The translations under genes were made by a program, and so were the position numbers. Below the pieces are notes generated by a model. The model was given only the letters and a program-made list of their open reading frames with translations, had not been told where the DNA came from and made no database searches. A DNA stretch of 64,000 bases from Eubacteriales bacterium (lineage in GTDB: Bacteria > Bacillota > Clostridia > Oscillospirales > CAG-272), in the NCBI GenBank assembly GCA_045598385.1, contig JAZLLY010000019.1, positions 1,205 through 65,204 of the forward strand, read 5' to 3'. This document shows positions 6,275-58,763 of this stretch, piece after piece. Each line of letters begins with the position of its first letter. Position 1 is the stretch's first letter.

Positions 6275-7985
6275 CGGGTGCTTCTTTCTTGTTTTTCTTG
6301 CCCAGCGTCTTTGCCAGAGAATCGGCAAGCGCCTTGGTGTTCTTCGCGACGGTCTTGAGATCCTCGTTGATCTCCGCCTGCAGATCGCCGTTGGCTTTCT
6401 GCTTTTCGGTGAGCGCTTTCTGATCGCGGAACAACTGTTTCTGACTGCCGATCACGTCTTTCTGTGCGTTCGTGATCTCGACCTGGAGCGAAGCGATCTC
6501 CTGCTGGATATCGTAGTTCTGTGCGTTCTCCTTGAGGATCTCGCGCTGATTCTTGTTGAGATTGTCCTGTTCGTCGATGATGCTCTTCATAGCGTCCTCG
6601 AGAGCGGTCTGCGCGTCGAGAACGGCTTTCTGATCGACGGTGGTGACTTTCTGAGACTCGACGATCTCTGCCTGGATGGCGGCGATGTTCTTCTGCTCTT
6701 CTGCGATGATCGCCTGGTTTTCCACGATGGCGATCTGGTCTTTACCGATGACTTTCTGATTGACCTGTACGCCCTCCTGCTCACGCAGCGTATAACGCTG
6801 AACGTCGTTGGTCTGGCGCTGCAGATCGACGATCTCTTTCTGCTTTTCGGCGATCTCCATGTGCGTAGCGGAAAGCGCCAGCATCTTTTCGTTCAGTTCC
6901 TTGACGTTTTCGAGCATACCCGTCAGTTTGTTCATGATGAAGTTTTCGTCGTCGGATACCTGCTCGGCGAGCTGGTATGCGTGACCGAACGCTTCCATGT
7001 TGGCGACGTTGGAATTCGACGCGACTTCGTCGATCTTCTCGGCGAGCAGCGCGATCTTGGCATCTACGTTCTCCGCCATGGACTGGAGCGCCTCGTTGAC
7101 GGTTTCGGTAATATCGAAATCGGGGTCAAGACCACTGACGAAAGCGGGCAGACTCGCCACATATTCGTTGATCTTCATCTCAAGCGCGGCACCGAACTTC
7201 TCCATCGCGCATTCGACGGCTTTCGTGATCTCCTTGGAAATGTCGATCGTGACGGGAGCCAGACGGTAAGAAGGTCTTTCCGGAGGATAGGGGTAACCGT
7301 AAGGCGGAACGGCAGGAGCGCCGGTGCGATCCTTGATATCGGCGACGGCGGCGGCAAGTCTTCTCACTTCATCTGCCAAAGCGTCGATCCTGAGACTGTC
7401 AGCGGTTGCCTGTTTGTTGTATGCGTTCATATCATGATCCCTTTCGTTTTCGTTTTCGTCGATTTTTTCGGGAGCGGGCTCATCCGGTTCTTCCGTGTCG
7501 TCCGCGTGCTTGAGATAATAGTCGATATCACCGATCGCCTTTTTATCCTTGACGCGTGCTTCGATATCCGCTTTCAGATTCTCGAAGTTCTGCACGACGT
7601 CGCTGCCGTTATCACGGATCTTGGTCTTCTCCGCCTCGTTCTTGGCAAAATCGGAATAGAAATAGTAACTTTCCGCAAGCTCTTTGATCTTGGCGTCGAG
7701 ATCGGTTTCCGCCGCGGCGATCTCCGATTCGATGTTCTGATACTCGAGATCGGTCTTCACCGACGCTTTGGCAAGCGCACGGTTTTTCGGCGAGATCTTC
7801 TGTTTCTCGTTGATCTCATCCAACTTGTCGGCTTTCTTCAAAAGTTTGTCCATCAGTCCGGCGTAATTCTTCAGTTTCTTTTTGATCTGAGACGTCAGAC
7901 TGCCGATCGACTTTTTGAGATCGCGTTTCGAGGGAATGAAATCTTCCATAGGTTCCGCGACGACGTCATTCGTTATGTTCGACAT
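6261..7985 (-). CDS. Coiled-coil protein of unknown function with C-terminal Gln-heptad repeat
   Basis: ORF with AGGAGG RBS before ATG 7983-7985 (MSNITNDVV). Charged helical sequence throughout, with a perfectly phased 7-aa repeat in the last ~190 aa. Confidence 0.75.
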   Translation of the reverse strand: MSNITNDVVAEPMEDFIPSKRDLKKSIGSLTSQIKKKLKNYAGLMDKLLKKADKLDEINEKQKISPKNRALAKASVKTDLEYQNIESEIAAAETDLDAKIKELAESYYFYSDFAKNEAEKTKIRDNGSDVVQNFENLKADIEARVKDKKAIGDIDYYLKHADDTEEPDEPAPEKIDENENERDHDMNAYNKQATADSLRIDALADEVRRLAAAVADIKDRTGAPAVPPYGYPYPPERPSYRLAPVTIDISKEITKAVECAMEKFGAALEMKINEYVASLPAFVSGLDPDFDITETVNEALQSMAENVDAKIALLAEKIDEVASNSNVANMEAFGHAYQLAEQVSDDENFIMNKLTGMLENVKELNEKMLALSATHMEIAEKQKEIVDLQRQTNDVQRYTLREQEGVQVNQKVIGKDQIAIVENQAIIAEEQKNIAAIQAEIVESQKVTTVDQKAVLDAQTALEDAMKSIIDEQDNLNKNQREILKENAQNYDIQQEIASLQVEITNAQKDVIGSQKQLFRDQKALTEKQKANGDLQAEINEDLKTVAKNTKALADSLAKTLGKKNKKEAPATEG

Positions 7986-8342: not shown

Positions 8343-8549
8343 AGTTATTTGGTGCGCGCGGCGCACAGTATAGTGTGCCAAAGGCACAGTTATGGTTTGC
8401 GGCTTTGCCGCAAAGTTATGATGCTCGCTACGCTCACAGTTATGATTTGCGCGGAGCGAAAAGTTATGATGTGCCAAAGGCACAGTTATGGTTTGCGCAA
8501 AGCGCAAATTTTTCCAAAAATAATAACTCATAGTTCATAACTCATAACT
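8343..8549 (+). repeat. Hairpin/linker array, AGTTATGRT-linker type only (copy 1)
   Basis: GTGCC-AAA-GGCAC, TTGCGGC-TTT-GCCGCAA, TTGCGC-AAA-GCGCAA and others, each followed by AGTTATGAT or AGTTATGGT. Ends with inverted CATAACT motifs. Confidence 0.8.
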
Positions 8550-16289: not shown

Positions 16290-16745
16290 GCCGCCAACGG
16301 CGGCAACGATGTGTTCCGCAAGCGGAACGTGATGCGCACTCCGTGCGTGATGTACGCCTGCGGCGAGTGATGTGCCGGCGGGCGTGGGTAGGGGTTCCCC
16401 GAAGCGAGCTTGTCGAGTTTTGGGGGTTCCCGTGGATAGGGGTTCCCCGAAGCGAGCTTGCCGAGCTTTGGGGGTTCCCGTGGATAGGGGTTCCCCGAAG
16501 CGAGTTTGCCGAGCTTTGGGGGTTCCCGTGCGTAGAACACATCTCATAACTTTGCGGTGCAACCGCAAACCATAACGGTGAGCAAAGCGAACCTCATAAC
16601 TTCGAGCGTAGCGAGAATCATAACTATGCCGCAGGCAAACCATAACTTTGCGGCAAAGCCGCAAATCATAACTTCGAGCGTAGCGAGAATCATAACTTTG
16701 CCGCAGGCAAACCATAACTTTACGGCATAACCGCAAATCATAACT
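16290..16745 (-). repeat. Hairpin/linker array, full composite with expanded CATAAC units (copy 2, reverse orientation relative to copy 5)
   Basis: GCCGCC-AAC-GGCGGC, AACGATGTGTTCC-GCAAGC-GGAAC, three hairpins linked by GTGATGY, then nine units linked by A(T/C)CATAAC(T). Confidence 0.85.
16390..16533. repeat. 3 x 48-bp tandem repeat nested inside array copy 2
   Basis: AGGGGTTCCCCGAAGCGAGCTTGYCGAGYTTTGGGGGTTCCCGTGGAT at 16390, 16438 and 16486. Each unit can form CCCCGAAGC/GCTTTGGGG. Confidence 0.85.
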
Positions 16746-16823
16746 TTCATACTCACCCGGCGAAAAGAAGTTTTACAATTTCTTTTCGCCTTTTTCTTTT
16801 TTGACATTTTTCGCGATTTTCCC

Positions 16824-17610: not shown

Positions 17611-18870
17611 ATGAAACGCATCGTTCTTTTTGCCCTGGCACTCACTCTGCTCTTATCCTGCGCCGTCATCCCCGCTTACGCCGCCTCGATCGGTCCCGCC
17701 GCGGAAGTCATCGCCGATTCCTGTACCCTCGTCAAAACGGGACTCAAAGGTCAGAAGATGACCTTTTCCGACACCGATTTCAAGCAGGCGCTCGGGGTGT
17801 CGGATTTTCGCTCCGTGACCGTGACTTCCCTGCCTAAATCGACCGACGGAACGCTGATCTACGGGAGCCGCCGCGTCGGCGTCGGTCAAACCGTCAAGCG
17901 CAAAAATCTCGCTGCCCTCGTTTTTATTCCGGCAGGGGACGGCGTGACCGAGGCAACGTTCACCTTTACCGTCAACGACGGCAGTAACGGTGCCGAGATC
18001 AAAGCCACGCTCCGCTTTATCGACCGTGTCAATTACGCGCCGAGCGTCAAGGACGGCAGCGTCGCAACCCTTTCGACGCAGAGCGGGATCTCGCTTTTCG
18101 CAAAAATGGCGGGAGATGATCCCGAGGGGGACGCGCTGACGTTTTTCGTCCTTTCCTATCCCGAAAACGGCAAACTGACGGTGCTCGACGCATCGACGGG
18201 TGCGTACCGCTACACGCCGGATGACGGTTTCGAGGGAACGGACGTTTTCCGTTATGTGGTGCGTGACGAATACGGCAATTATTCGGCGATCGCGACGGCA
18301 AATCTCTCGGTGGAAACCCGGCTTTCCACGGTCTCTTACGCCGATATGACCGACTCGCCCGCCTATAACGCCGCCGTCACGATGGACGCCCTCGGGGTAA
18401 TGAACGGCACGCTCATCGGCGACAACCGTTATTTCAAGCCCGACGACACCGTCACCCGCGCCGAATTTACGGCAATGGCGCTCAAGACTTACGGCATCAA
18501 AGCCGATTCCACCCTGACGAAGACGTTCTTCGATGATAACGCGAAGATCCCGACGGCGCTCGTCTCCTACGTGGCGACGGCGCAGAAGATCGGCGTTGTG
18601 AACGGCTCTTTCGACGGAGAAAACCTGCTCTTCCGCCCGAACGACGCGATTACGCCCTGCGAAGCCGCGATGATCCTCTCGGCACTTCTCGGCACGGAGG
18701 CAAAAGCATCCTCCGCGCTTTCCGCGAAAGTCCCCGCCTGGGCATCGGCGAGCGTCTCGCTGATGGAGGAAAACGGGATTTTTGACGAAAACTTCTCCGG
18801 GAAACTCGAGACCGGAATGACAAGAGCCGACGTCGCCGAAGTCCTCTTCCGCCTCGCAAAGATGAGTTAA
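17611..18870 (+). CDS. Secreted cell-wall protein with Ig/cadherin-like repeats and C-terminal SLH domains
   Basis: Signal peptide ending AYAAS. DGTLIYG and YRYTPDDGFEGTDVFRYVVRD are cadherin-like. C-terminal repeats of F.P.D..TRAE are SLH type. AAGGAG RBS. Confidence 0.8.
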   Translation: MKRIVLFALALTLLLSCAVIPAYAASIGPAAEVIADSCTLVKTGLKGQKMTFSDTDFKQALGVSDFRSVTVTSLPKSTDGTLIYGSRRVGVGQTVKRKNLAALVFIPAGDGVTEATFTFTVNDGSNGAEIKATLRFIDRVNYAPSVKDGSVATLSTQSGISLFAKMAGDDPEGDALTFFVLSYPENGKLTVLDASTGAYRYTPDDGFEGTDVFRYVVRDEYGNYSAIATANLSVETRLSTVSYADMTDSPAYNAAVTMDALGVMNGTLIGDNRYFKPDDTVTRAEFTAMALKTYGIKADSTLTKTFFDDNAKIPTALVSYVATAQKIGVVNGSFDGENLLFRPNDAITPCEAAMILSALLGTEAKASSALSAKVPAWASASVSLMEENGIFDENFSGKLETGMTRADVAEVLFRLAKMS

Positions 18871-18873
18871 GAA

Positions 18874-19162
18874 ATCCGCGTGAGCGGTATGGAATCCGTC
18901 GCAGACGGCATGGCATCCGCGCGAGCGGAACACATCGTTGAAAAAACAAAATTATAAAGTGATGTTTGCCCTGACGGGCAAGTGATGTTATGGCTACGCC
19001 ATAGTGATGTTTTGCGGTTGCACCGCAAAGTGATGAGATGTGTTCCACACGCCCGCAGGCACATCACTCGCCGCAGGCGTACATCACGCACGGAGTGCGC
19101 ATCACGTTCCGCTTCCGGAACACATCGTTGAAAAAACCACTTGCAAAAGCAAGTGGTTTTTT
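18874..19162 (+). repeat. Hairpin/linker array plus terminator hairpin (copy 3), abutting tRNA-Tyr
   Basis: Four GTGATG linkers (18959, 18982, 19004, 19030), three CATCAC linkers (19061, 19081, 19099), then CCACTTGC-AAAA-GCAAGTGG and T6. Confidence 0.85.
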
Positions 19163-19163
19163 C

Positions 19164-19248
19164 TGGTGGGGGAAGGTGGATTCGGACCACCGAAGTCAGT
19201 GACAACAGATTTACAGTCTGCCCCCTTTGGCCGCTCGGGAATTCCCCC
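19164..19248 (-). tRNA. tRNA-Tyr (anticodon GTA), CCA encoded, long variable arm
   Basis: Reverse complement is GGGGGAATTCCCGAGCGGCCAAAGGGGGCAGACTGTAAATCTGTTGTCACTGACTTCGGTGGTCCGAATCCACCTTCCCCCACCA. The cloverleaf was folded by hand. Confidence 0.9.
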
Positions 19249-22581: not shown

Positions 22582-22966
22582 GTGAAAAAAGCGCAGACCG
22601 AAAAGGGAAAGAGGGTATTTATCCTTCTTTCCCTATTTTTGTGCCTTTCTTGCGCCAATACCCCTTATCTGAGGTAGAAATCCTTGCGGATTTCCTTTAT
22701 ATTATTTTCCCTTTTCTACCGCCGAAAAGCGCTCTTGCCGTACACTTGTACGGCTCGCGGGCCGCTTTTCGACGCTTCTGCATCTCTTTTCCCTATCTCT
22801 ATTAGTCGGATAAAAACGGTCAGACCGAAAAGGGGAGAGGATATTTGTCCTTTCTCCTTTTTTCATTTTTCTTTCTTGCGCTAATACCCCTTATCTGAGG
22901 TAGAAATCCTTGCGGATTTCTTCTTTGTTTGATCCCCTTTTCTACCGCCGAAAAGCGCTCTTGCCT
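22582..22966 (+). repeat. Two ~226-bp direct repeats, each starting with a terminator cassette (CAGACCGAAAAGG + stem + T-run)
   Basis: CAGACCGAAAAGG at 22594 and 22821. TTCTTGCGCYAATACCCCTTATCTGAGGTAGAAATCCTTGCGGATTTC at 22648 and 22874. TTTTCTACCGCCGAAAAGCGCTCTTGCC at 22712 and 22938. Confidence 0.8.
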
Positions 22967-23153
22967 CGCCGCTCGCGGCGAACGATGCGTTTCACTGCGC
23001 GAAACGTGATGTGCACTTCGTGCGTGATATACACCTATGGCGAGTGATGTGCCTGCGGGCGACGGGGAACGCATCTCATAACTTTGCGGCAAAGCCGCAA
23101 ATCATAACTGTACCGTAGGTATATCATAACTTGCCGAGCGGGCAATCATAACT
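22967..23153 (-). repeat. Hairpin/linker array, diverged copy (copy 4)
   Basis: CGCCG-CTCG-CGGCG, AACGATGCGTTTC-ACTGCGC-GAAAC, GTGATG-linked hairpins, GGAACGCATC, then three ATCATAACT-linked hairpins. Confidence 0.8.
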
Positions 23154-23159
23154 GATATT

Positions 23160-23530
23160 TGTTCTGCGCAAAAAGCGCACATTTTCCCCCATTTTTCTTC
23201 CAAAACCAACCACACACCCATTCTTTTCCGAAAACGGGATGATTTTTGATGCAGATTCGCCGAGCTTCGCCCGAAGGCGTATATTCATACGTCGAGCGGC
23301 GAAGACCGACGAAAAAAGAGCCGGTGAAAGTCCGGCTCTTTGTTCTGCGCAAAAAGCGCACGTTTTCCCGAAAACGGATTGGATTTTGATGCAGATTCGC
23401 CGAGCTTCGCCCGAAGGCGTATATTCATACGTCGAGCGGCGAAGACCGACGAAAAAAGAGCCGGGGAAAGTCCGGCTCTTTGGTCTGCGCAAAAAGCGCG
23501 CGTTTTCAAGCGCAAAAGCGCACGTTTTCA
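23160..23530 (-). repeat. Tandem ~140-bp structured module (2 full copies plus a partial one) 3' of pyk, each ending in an intrinsic terminator on the minus strand
   Basis: TTGATGCAGATTCGCCGAGCTTCGCCCGAAGGCG...AGAGCCGG-loop-CCGGCTCT at 23246 and 23386. TTCTGCGCAAAAAGCGCAC at 23162 and 23343, with a GTCTGCGC variant at 23483. Confidence 0.8.
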
Positions 23531-58327: not shown

Positions 58328-58371
58328 AAAAGCGAAGACGGCGCGCGCCGCATGCTATAATATCCGTTCCT

Positions 58372-58687
58372 TATACGCCTGTGGCGTATATCATCCGCGT
58401 AAGTGGATATCATTGTAAAAAACAAAATTATAAAGTGATGTTTGTCCTGACGGGCAAGTTATGGTGCGCGTAAACGCGCAGTTATGATTTGCGCAAGCGC
58501 AAAGTTATGATTCTCGCTCCGCTCGCAGTTATGATTTGCGGTTGCACCGCAAAGTTATGAGATGTGTTCCTACACGCCCGCAGGCACATCACTCGCCGCA
58601 GGCGTACATCACGCACGGAGTGCGCATCACGTTCCGCTTGCGGAACACATCGTTGAAAAAACCACTTGCAAAAGCAAGTGGTTTTTT
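58372..58687 (+). repeat. Hairpin/linker array plus terminator hairpin (copy 5), abutting tRNA-Gln
   Basis: Ten stem-loops separated by AGTGATGT or AGTTATGRT (left half) and ACATCAC or GCATCAC (right half), then CCACTTGC-AAAA-GCAAGTGG and T6. Confidence 0.85.
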
Positions 58688-58688
58688 C

Positions 58689-58763
58689 TGGCAGGGGTAG
58701 CTGGATTCGGACCAACGAGTGCAGGAGTCAAAGTCCTGTGCCTTACCGCTTGGCTATACCCCC
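58689..58763 (-). tRNA. tRNA-Gln (anticodon TTG), CCA encoded
   Basis: Reverse complement is GGGGGTATAGCCAAGCGGTAAGGCACAGGACTTTGACTCCTGCACTCGTTGGTCCGAATCCAGCTACCCCTGCCA. The cloverleaf was folded by hand. Confidence 0.9.

Follow-up and report, generated by a model that had tools for sequence, protein, structure and literature searches.

The DNA analysed here, called the window throughout, is a stretch of 64,000 nucleotides from an Eubacteriales bacterium (GenBank assembly GCA_045598385.1, contig JAZLLY010000019.1, positions 1,205 to 65,204 of the forward strand), and our subject is a trailer sequence that stands in two nearly identical copies behind two different tRNA genes on its minus strand. 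The first of these is a tRNA-Tyr gene with anticodon GTA and an encoded CCA (19164..19248; called by ARAGORN, with 48.8 bits to the Rfam tRNA model), and the second is a tRNA-Gln gene with anticodon TTG (58689..58763; ARAGORN). When 19037-19166 and 58561-58691 are aligned globally on the minus strand, 129 of 130/131 positions are identical, the sole substitution being CCGGAAGC versus CCGCAAGC and the sole 1-nt indel GTGT-GGAAC versus GTGTAGGAAC, which reproduces exactly the two differences reported in an earlier interpretation made from the letters of this DNA (hereafter the sequence-only reading). Two further statements in that reading, namely that the shared block starts right behind the CCA of both tRNAs and that it consists, on the tRNA strand, of a terminator hairpin, a T6 run, and three GTGATG-linked hairpins in that order, are borne out by the sequence and by ARAGORN. 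Near-identity on this scale is not a matter of chance, and the likeness runs on beyond the block first reported, at 93% over 190 nt plus a common 47-nt tail (BLAST), to give full elements at ~18941-19166 behind tRNA-Tyr and ~58417-58691 behind tRNA-Gln. The genes around the two elements are unrelated, with an SLH/Big_9 wall protein and a DUF5058 protein as neighbors at the Tyr locus and a MIF-like protein and IMP dehydrogenase as neighbors at the Gln locus. The wall protein is encoded by an open reading frame of 419 aa (17611-18870, plus strand) convergent with tRNA-Tyr, for which an exact-protein look-up returned no record, and at both loci a convergent protein gene ends ~90 nt from the linked hairpins.

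Read along the tRNA strand, the trailer consists of the CCA, G-A6-CCACTTGC-TTTT-GCAAGTGG-T6-C, AACGATGTGTTCC, the three GTGATG-linked hairpins, and a closing GGAACACATC. The first part, which we call the head, occupies 19130..19163 (minus strand) at the Tyr locus, beginning 1 nt past the CCA, and has the form of an intrinsic terminator, with a 15-bp perfect stem, a TTTT loop, and a T6 run, predicted from the sequence and from folds of both strands. Because an A-run flanks the stem on one side and a T-run on the other, this hairpin is bidirectional in form. The head at the Gln locus (58655..58688, minus strand) is identical. Next come a leader (AAC) and what we call module A, together at 19037..19129 (minus strand) according to the alignment coordinates, the fold, and an Rfam match described below. 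Module A is a closed domain of ~95 nt in which a 10-bp outer stem surrounds 3-4 short hairpins, each perfectly paired and set off from the next by a constant 6-7-nt linker. Behind tRNA-Tyr, this outer stem is formed by a left arm, GATGTGTTCC (19117-19126), and, ~80 nt further on, a right arm, GGAACACATC (19037-19046), and the GTGATG linkers lie between the hairpins inside these arms at 19100-19105, 19082-19087, and 19062-19067. The leader and module A of the Gln locus lie at 58561..58654 (minus strand), with arms at 58642-58651 and 58561-58570 and GTGATG at 58625-58630, 58607-58612, and 58587-58592.

Behind module A, a second set of hairpin units, module B, runs in the inverted orientation, and the number of its CATCAC/CATAAC units differs between the loci. 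Four units stand at the Tyr locus (18959..19036, minus strand; CATCAC linkers at 19030-19035, 19004-19009, 18982-18987, and 18959-18964) and six at the Gln locus (58435..58560, minus strand; five CATAAC linkers and one CATCAC). At the Tyr locus, the tail TTTATAATTTTG and a second TTTTTT-CAAC-GATGTGTTCC follow at 18927..18958 (minus strand), such that the leader is present twice (18927-18939 and 19117-19129) and the 20-mer TTTTTTCAACGATGTGTTCC recurs past the tail (18927-18946 versus 19117-19135) as a direct repeat bracketing modules A and B. From there, a residual short array of another linker flavor, with TGCCATG / ATTCCATA linkers, reaches to the stop codon of the SLH gene, which ends at 18870 (18875..18926, minus strand). 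The corresponding region of the Gln locus (58350..58434, minus strand) has the tail TTTATAATTTTG-T6 (58417-58434), which leads into a leader, ACAATGATATCC, of a flavor different from the trailer's own and two TGATAT-flavor hairpins. We rejected coding potential for the arrays: their units are 23 to 26 nt long, which are not multiples of three, and we therefore regard them as non-coding. Judged by its sequence, the trailer is a predicted bidirectional terminator hairpin fused to a modular repeat, and this DNA is not specific to tRNAs.

The repeat itself is, on the strength of covariance-model matches and shared architecture, a probable divergent flavor of Gut-1 (Rfam RF01706), a catalogued motif family that has lacked an explanation. 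The full-length Gut-1 model (1-77) matches module A at 19056-19130 (minus strand) with 38.5 bits and module B at 18957-19041 (plus strand) with 35.1 bits, both below the gathering score of 50. All three helices of the Gut-1 architecture are formed, and a constant linker of the GUGAnnU type is present, as GUGAUG rather than GUGAAA. The genome, which comprises 1.50 Mb and is 99% complete, holds 35 Gut-1 matches, sub-threshold ones included, and the only copy over the cutoff is the trailer of tRNA-Trp, with 53.7 bits. Extending the search to 31 genomes (30 of them relatives from the same order), we found matches over the cutoff in 17 and up to 45 matches (E <= 0.01) per genome, so Gut-1 is a high-copy repeat and not a single gene. 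The best match among the relatives (90 bits) is the tRNA-Tyr trailer of genome G025, and canonical copies share that position. The carriers are metagenome-assembled genomes (MAGs) of uncultured Clostridia, Eubacteriales, and Oscillospiraceae from animal guts. Gut-1 was described by Weinberg et al. 2010 (Genome Biol 11:R31, PMC2864571) as a probable non-coding RNA found only in human-gut metagenome sequence, and the same paper rates it a certain RNA ('Y') from covariation. A literature search found no later functional work on Gut-1.

Arrays of this kind are dispersed through the genome. A detector based on chains of linkers located 49 intergenic array loci of several flavors (GTGATG/GTTATG, ATGATG, TGATAT, ATTCCAT, and ATGAAG), and a generic search for tandem hairpins returned 98 arrays, against 7 in shuffled sequence. 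They lie nearly always beside the 3' end of a gene, with 2 of the 49 loci in divergent intergenic regions, and composites carry units in both orientations, pointing towards one another. Copies of module A are 93-99% identical at many loci, and the arrays show unit shuffling and block duplication.

About a quarter of the array loci lie behind tRNA 3' ends. By eye, 10 of the 43 tRNA genes (Tyr, Gln-ttg, Trp, Asn, Thr-tgt, Lys-ctt, Gln-ctg, Leu-tag, Arg-cct, and Gly-ccc) run into a terminator and array at CCA+0-2, and two further cassettes, by which we mean a terminator head with its array, stand behind duplicated tRNA 3' ends (Val-cac and Leu-gag). With one automated detector, arrays were found behind 7 of 17 tRNA terminators versus 7 of 204 protein-gene terminators (odds ratio 19.7, p = 1e-5), and with all genes counted the enrichment at tRNAs has p = 6e-8. 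For a comparison across species, an exact match to the last 25 nt of tRNA-Tyr was used to collect 119 loci, with one representative genome per species, 105 of which had a tail long enough to score. A linker-hairpin array was detected within 220 nt in 35 of these 105 tails as compared with 25 of 2991 background windows (odds ratio 59, p = 2e-38), and by eye ~15 more of the 105 are arrays. Metagenome contigs add nine occurrences of the GTGATG flavor, of which 5-6 directly follow the 3' end of a tRNA (Leu, Met, His, an Asn-like end, and a Met fragment); a metagenome scan with the species-specific tRNA-Tyr leader gave no match. The arrays are tied to tRNAs beyond a general preference for terminators, and the tie is not exclusive. 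The enrichment at tRNA 3' flanks that the sequence-only reading had proposed to look for is therefore present and strong, while its idea of a repeat targeted to tRNA 3' ends holds as a preference and not as a restriction.

The heads of the cassettes fall into recognizable types that recur with the arrays. Head T1 has the form (G)A6-(G/C)CACTTGC-loop-GCAAGTG(G/C)-T6 (of the GCACTTGC...GCAAGTGC type), and head T2 the form AC-A6-N5-TTTGTC-TACC-GACAAA-N5-T6-G. In this genome, T1 stands behind Tyr, Gln-ttg, and Trp(cca), and T2 behind Lys, Gln, Leu, Arg, Gly, and Thr as well as both duplicated tRNA 3' ends. Elsewhere, T1 occurs behind tRNA-Trp in G021, tRNA-Gln in G030, tRNA-Tyr in several MAGs, and Asn-like ends in viral contigs. 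In the set of 105 tails collected behind tRNA-Tyr, the detector found an array after 22 of 27 T1/T2 heads (27 of 27 by eye) versus 30 of 78 other terminators (p = 1e-4), and the array-less tRNAs of this genome have unrelated terminators. Since the T1 and T2 heads travel with arrays behind different tRNAs, it would be the cassette that supplies the terminator.

Comparison of orthologous loci could not follow the wall-protein gene, as its orthologues in 12 same-genus genomes have no tRNA within 1.5 kb; because the SLH locus is not syntenic among these genomes, we compared the tRNA flanks instead. Behind tRNA-Tyr in 19 relatives we found arrays of other flavors (G011, G022, G012, and G025), a bare terminator (G009, G001, and G003), or, in the remaining genomes, other small elements. 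The flank of tRNA-Gln(ttg), compared likewise, shows the same variability, with a bare terminator in G015, G025, G026, and G028. The site behind the tRNA 3' end is therefore polymorphic; the linker flavor at the same tRNA is specific to the genome across species, and no duplicated flanking genes are common to the loci. We infer from these comparisons that the identity of the Tyr and Gln trailers is recent and does not stem from common ancestry of the loci.

Taken as a whole, these observations are in our view probably best explained if the trailer is taken as a single copy of a non-coding cassette that is dispersed in the genome, consists of a hairpin array anchored to a terminator, and represents a divergent Gut-1 flavor. 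The whole cassette, terminator included, would recently have passed as a copy from the 3' flank of one tRNA to that of another, either by gene conversion or by an insertion akin to transposition, and because the terminator would have been copied along with the rest, the tRNA genes would use the head hairpin of the cassette as their own. Much of the sequence-only reading survives in this form. Of its two proposals for the trailer, the mobile one that brings its own terminator is the one favored, and recent copying, which it had deduced from the near-identity, is likewise supported, with spread by transposition and gene conversion fitting the data alike. What has to be amended is that the cassette is not restricted to tRNAs and that its family had already been catalogued as Gut-1.

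The predicted folds bear on the form in which an array might act. Fold z-scores against shuffled sequences are -7.7 to -8.5 on both strands, and module A with a closed outer stem has z = -7.7; minimum-free-energy structures computed for RNA close the 10-bp outer stem of module A on both strands, and those computed for DNA leave it unclosed. An outer inverted repeat that is perfect over 8 nt or more is present in 43 of 94 tRNA-Tyr tails versus 6 of 94 controls, starting just behind the terminator and with its partner ~83-86 nt on, and there are at least 10 different outer-arm sequences, including GATGTTTGCC, TAAATCCACCC, TAAGTGTTCCGC, GAAGTCGCCCC, and CAAGCCGCAGG. This pattern indicates that the outer closing helix, which is absent from the Rfam Gut-1 model, is kept by covariation across flavors. 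The array stems are nearly perfect Watson-Crick helices, with 14 mismatches in 1316 pairs (7 G.T versus 2 A.C); an unbiased recount gave 0-2 G.T versus 2-3 A.C. With the stems almost perfect, the mismatches are uninformative as to the strand, and the near-lack of G.U pairs is atypical of RNA helices under selection. The loops, when counted in the linker-first orientation, are strongly asymmetric (TTC 60 versus GAA 4, TGC 28 versus GCA 1, TAC 16 versus GTA 2, and TTGC 12 versus GCAA 1), and it follows that the strand with the CATCAC linker carries C-G-closed GNA triloops and GNRA-like tetraloops. Loops of these kinds have exceptional stability in RNA and in single-stranded DNA alike, and the asymmetry points to a putative functional form that is single-stranded, whether RNA or DNA.

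An alternative that keeps to the original view of Gut-1 is that the arrays are true structured non-coding RNAs, made by read-through of the tRNA or as the 3' untranslated region of the convergent gene at the shared terminator, and that they act as a stabilizing 3' structure or as a sponge or platform for the PF05635 protein described below. The rating of Gut-1 as a certain RNA by Weinberg et al. 2010 (PMC2864571) speaks for this, as do the covariation of the stems and the outer closing stem across flavors and the GNRA/GNA-type loops on the CATCAC-linker strand. On that same strand, module A is followed by the terminator, as at the end of a small RNA or a 3' untranslated region, and the nearby end of a convergent protein gene at both loci would suit such a transcript. 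However, the array sits downstream of a strong predicted terminator relative to the tRNA, and no promoter of their own was seen in front of the arrays. G.U pairs are all but missing from the stems (0-7 of more than 1000), every composite has units in both orientations, and the number of matches per genome is high. The C-G-closed GNA triloops are equally the textbook case of an ultra-stable mini-hairpin in single-stranded DNA. On balance we regard the RNA explanation as unlikely, if worth keeping in view.

A second alternative dispenses with mobility altogether and holds that the arrays were acquired long ago and that the Tyr and Gln copies owe their identity to concerted evolution by gene conversion among the dispersed arrays. 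The genome-specific linker flavors at the same tRNA, the high identity of module A at many loci, and the unit shuffling and block duplication would all be expected on this account. Against it, related species have bare terminators at the same tRNAs (the three Tyr and four Gln cases listed above), so gain or loss does occur, and the identity of the two trailers reaches through the head up to the CCA, beyond which the only homology that conversion could have used is that of the tRNA ends themselves (22 of 28 nt). This account seems to us distinctly unlikely.

Less likely again is an origin from small elements that integrated site-specifically at tRNA 3' ends and brought a tRNA end and terminator with them, the cassettes then being remnants of their arms and the linkers arm-type recombinase sites. 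The precise junction at the CCA fits such an origin, and some cassettes stand behind a mere tRNA 3' fragment, Asn-like (...GGGGGAGCCA) in L211, L277, and L291 and Met-derived in L214. In all, we noted cassettes after an apparent tRNA 3' fragment in which ARAGORN called no tRNA, and which could be att-like remnants, at two metagenome loci (L211 and L214) and four IMG/VR loci (L277, L291, L352, and L367). Other small modules in this genome also duplicate tRNA 3' ends, two cassettes lie behind such ends, and the tRNA 3' flanks of the clade collect other elements too. At the two loci in question, however, no integrase gene adjoins either tRNA, and no second Tyr or Gln 3' end was found in the window (allowing up to 3 mismatches in 19 nt). 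Moreover, ~75% of the arrays, those with GC-hairpin heads, lie away from tRNAs, and the presence of the same cassette behind many tRNAs is left unexplained by a single att specificity. An integrase-att origin is thus unsupported at the Tyr and Gln loci and possible elsewhere. A scan of viral contigs for GTGAAAT arrays returned mostly chance matches, with 11 of 120 loci being true arrays. Finally, an ancestral segmental duplication that included the flanking genes, which the sequence-only reading had itself set against its interpretation, is ruled out for practical purposes, because the flanking genes of the two loci are unrelated, the likeness ends at the tRNA on one side and at the array tail on the other, the genome has 25 or more additional copies at other places, and we found no evidence in its support.

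Returning to the recently copied cassette, we identified a candidate partner protein. The genome has two genes for four-helix-bundle proteins of the PF05635/TIGR02436 family (TIGR02436 105.7 bits; PDB 2RLD 1e-30), and in both cases a tRNA or duplicated tRNA end is followed by a T2 terminator, an ATGATG array of 4 forward and 4 inverted units, and then the PF05635 gene. One of the two (C11:1060-1371) is interrupted by an in-frame TAA, which makes it a probable pseudogene; the terminator-array-gene unit to which it belongs is, by eye, a close copy of the intact unit at C16:218210-218830, whose gene occupies 218210-218521. A clear -35/-10 promoter lies between the array and the PF05635 gene at four loci (L207, L209, L215, and L217), and the two loci of this genome have only weak promoter-like sequence there. 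The PF05635 proteins encoded beside arrays are 115-130 aa long and lack nuclease motifs. Among the 31 genomes, 19 have both Gut-1 and PF05635, 8 have neither, and 4 are discordant, two of these being incomplete. Enough upstream sequence was available for ~37 PF05635 loci; an array stands directly before the gene in ~30 of them, and a tRNA lies upstream on the same strand in ~19.

The pairing extends to the linker flavor. In a maximum-likelihood tree of 46 PF05635 proteins from 20 genomes, the proteins group by the flavor of the adjacent array, with 12 changes needed for 11 flavors where the minimum possible is 10. When the flavor labels were shuffled 300 times, at least 25 changes were needed (mean 29.6), and the genome label needs 30. 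Eight flavor clades each extend over two or more GTDB families, or over one family and metagenome contigs, and several clades can be present in one genome. The protein of this genome falls in the [A/G]TGATGT clade, whose linker is that of module A of the trailer. Such covariation of clade and flavor shows the PF05635 proteins and the arrays as putative cognate pairs. PADLOC found no defense-system match for the PF05635 protein. A literature search on PF05635 yielded nothing beyond its Avd likeness, the family being described as Avd-like in a review (PMC10053308).

We therefore offer, tentatively and by analogy with known repeat-protein pairs, a mode of action in which the array in single-stranded form serves as the cognate binding platform of this Avd-like four-helix-bundle protein, in a manner resembling repetitive extragenic palindromic (REP) sequences and REP-associated tyrosine transposases (RAYTs) but without a nuclease. 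A broader conjecture, and one that we hold to be doubtful as it stands, is that Gut-1-superfamily arrays and PF05635 proteins form an undescribed repeat-plus-protein system, with one protein clade per flavor, that docks at tRNA terminators and supplies them. The protein would read the linker next to mini-hairpins extruded on single-stranded nucleic acid, and would either propagate the cassette or mark or insulate the 3' ends of stable RNAs.

Several findings weigh against this picture and against the mobile cassette on which it builds. GTTATG/CATAAC, the commonest flavor here, has no PF05635 gene of a matching clade in this genome, and one intact PF05635 gene faces ~49 arrays of at least five flavors, which weighs against a strict one-to-one need. 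The correlation between protein and flavor could arise from linkage within a cassette lineage rather than from binding. About three quarters of the arrays lie away from tRNAs, mostly at the 3' ends of protein genes and with GC-hairpin heads. No transposase or other mobilizing enzyme was identified. A RAYT/Y1 transposase partner was rejected, as PF01797 gave 0 matches in this 99%-complete genome and did match the control genomes; a diversity-generating-retroelement partner was also rejected, since the only reverse transcriptase of the genome is a group II intron protein. There is no clear target-site duplication at the Tyr and Gln loci. Measured against a miniature inverted-repeat transposable element, the 20-nt T6-leader direct repeat occurs at the Tyr locus and at a locus on contig C8, with just a T-run repeat at the Gln locus, and the 10-bp perfect inverted repeat that bounds module A closes that module alone and covaries like a structural helix. 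The gene calls and array detectors were also home-made, and the detectors under-call arrays. The array counts given here are conservative.

The window contains further members of the family. A copy at 16304..16750 (plus strand), which is not beside a tRNA, has a module A 98% identical to that of the trailer, three 48-nt GGGGTTCCCC modules, and nine CATAAC units. The 48-nt module (GGGTAGGGGTTCCCCGAAGCGAGCTTGTCGAGTTTTGGGGGTTCCCGTG) occurs in 0-3 tandem copies exactly between modules A and B, at 16383-16535 in the window and also at C8:44300-44500 and on contigs C15 and C43. A diverged copy of modules A and B, with ~80-89% identity, lies at 22980..23145 (plus strand), and an array of the module B type with GTTATG linkers lies at 8353..8500 (plus strand). 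Beside the diverged copy we noted two tandem 140-nt repeats that are 94% identical and a 138-nt pair, 226 nt apart and 82% identical (23224-23503 / 22602-22965).

The tRNA genes and their flanks show other peculiarities. The T-loops of tRNA-Tyr and tRNA-Gln(ttg) (19177-19183 and 58702-58708 in the window) and of a tRNA-Cys (L024) read TCCGAAT or TCCGATT, with C at position 55 in place of the nearly universal U that becomes pseudouridine 55, and the exact 3' end of tRNA-Tyr is common to at least 119 genomes, counting one representative per species. About nine tRNAs are followed by their own terminator and then by a conserved GC-rich module of ~100 nt (GAAGGGGAGCGGTACTGAATGAC...GCCGCGGAAGACCGAGCGCG...), which ends in a second copy of the last ~20 nt of the tRNA, including the CCA, and has a 5' arm complementary to that copy. 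Examples lie on contigs outside the window, behind Gly-gcc (L017, C33), Val-cac (L018, C43), Leu-gag and Leu-cag (L019 and L020, both C16), Ser-cga (L021, C27), Met (L022, C4), and Val-gac (L023, C30). The module has no Rfam match, and in relatives different modules that likewise duplicate the tRNA tail follow tRNA-Tyr and tRNA-Gln. A third small element at tRNA terminators has (T)CTTCACT runs on one side, AGTGAATAGTGAAGA on the other, and a partial copy of the terminator 3' half between them, and its appearance suggests an insertion into the terminator. It follows tRNA-Cys in this genome (L024, C21) and occurs in relatives (L047, L049, L191, L195, L202, and L205) and in other MAGs (L062, L108, L112, L150, and L178). 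A group II intron (L223, C18:~6340-7980) on the strand opposite the second tRNA-Trp(cca) has its 3' end ~5 nt from the tRNA 3' end; it matches RF01998 (D1-D4) and RF00029 (D5/D6) and encodes a 421-aa reverse transcriptase/maturase without an endonuclease domain. The few bases after the tRNA CCA are thus a hot spot in this clade for at least four kinds of small element, namely hairpin-array cassettes, tRNA-tail modules, TCTTCACT elements, and a group II intron, which matters for the annotation of metagenome-assembled genomes and for how tRNA genes gain terminators.

Among known systems, the closest parallel in lifestyle is that of REP sequences and bacterial interspersed mosaic elements (BIMEs), which in Proteobacteria are reportedly accompanied by RAYT (Y1 transposase) genes, as Nunvar in 2010, Bertels and Rainey in 2011, and Ton-Hoang in 2012 are said to have described. 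Like REP/BIME, the cassettes consist of short palindromic units with a conserved flanking oligonucleotide, in alternating orientation and in tens to hundreds of copies at gene 3' ends, as the dispersed intergenic loci of this genome illustrate. As with RAYTs, a low-copy gene is flanked by its own cognate type of repeat, and the repeat type co-varies with the protein clade. In REP units, the palindrome itself is conserved, and they have a 5' GTAG tetranucleotide and a gene for a Y1 (HUH) RAYT transposase. In contrast, the cassettes conserve the linker (GTGATG, GTTATG, and others) while the hairpin sequences vary, lack a GTAG motif, have a terminator head and a preference for tRNAs, and are paired with a four-helix bundle without nuclease motifs.

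BOX elements of Streptococcus pneumoniae (boxA-boxB(n)-boxC), along with other intergenic mosaic repeats of Firmicutes, offer a second parallel. Their modular plan of A, variable middle, and C resembles module A, 0-3 48-nt modules, and module B(n), and both are strongly folded, intergenic, and without coding capacity. BOX elements are, however, not arrays of linkers and variable hairpins, no sequence relationship to the cassette is to be expected, and they are not known to be linked with tRNA terminators or with a protein of their own.

On the protein side, the gene beside the arrays is a clear member of the family of Avd and of the proteins of 23S rRNA intervening sequences (PF05635, TIGR02436, cd16375; PDB 2RLD). 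Other members likewise lie in or next to stable-RNA genes, as in the 23S intervening sequences, or act with a structured nucleic acid, as in the complex of Avd, reverse transcriptase, and RNA of diversity-generating retroelements. The context here differs in being the 3' flanks of tRNAs and not rRNA, and binding of the arrays is putative. If the proposed pairing is true, it would give a first functional handle on PF05635 outside diversity-generating retroelements and a reason why members sit in rRNA intervening sequences.

The comparison with Gut-1 itself is the most direct. Both it and the trailer have three short hairpins, a constant heptamer (GUGAAAU in Gut-1 and GUGAUG(U) in the trailer), and CAAYGA in front; the trailer differs in its linker and in scoring under the gathering threshold. 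The published description of Gut-1 is without the terminator head, the outer closing stem, the inverted second module, the high copy number, and the links to tRNAs and to PF05635. An Rfam orphan since 2010, without organism, context, or function, is hereby placed, along with a superfamily of linker flavors, in identifiable uncultured Clostridia of the gut and rumen, as a high-copy cassette tied statistically to tRNA terminators and accompanied by a candidate partner protein with clades that match the linker. What lies behind the two tRNA genes of the window would accordingly be a new flavor, and a much enlarged description, of the known and so far unexplained Gut-1, with a REP/BIME-like lifestyle and a plausible cognate protein.

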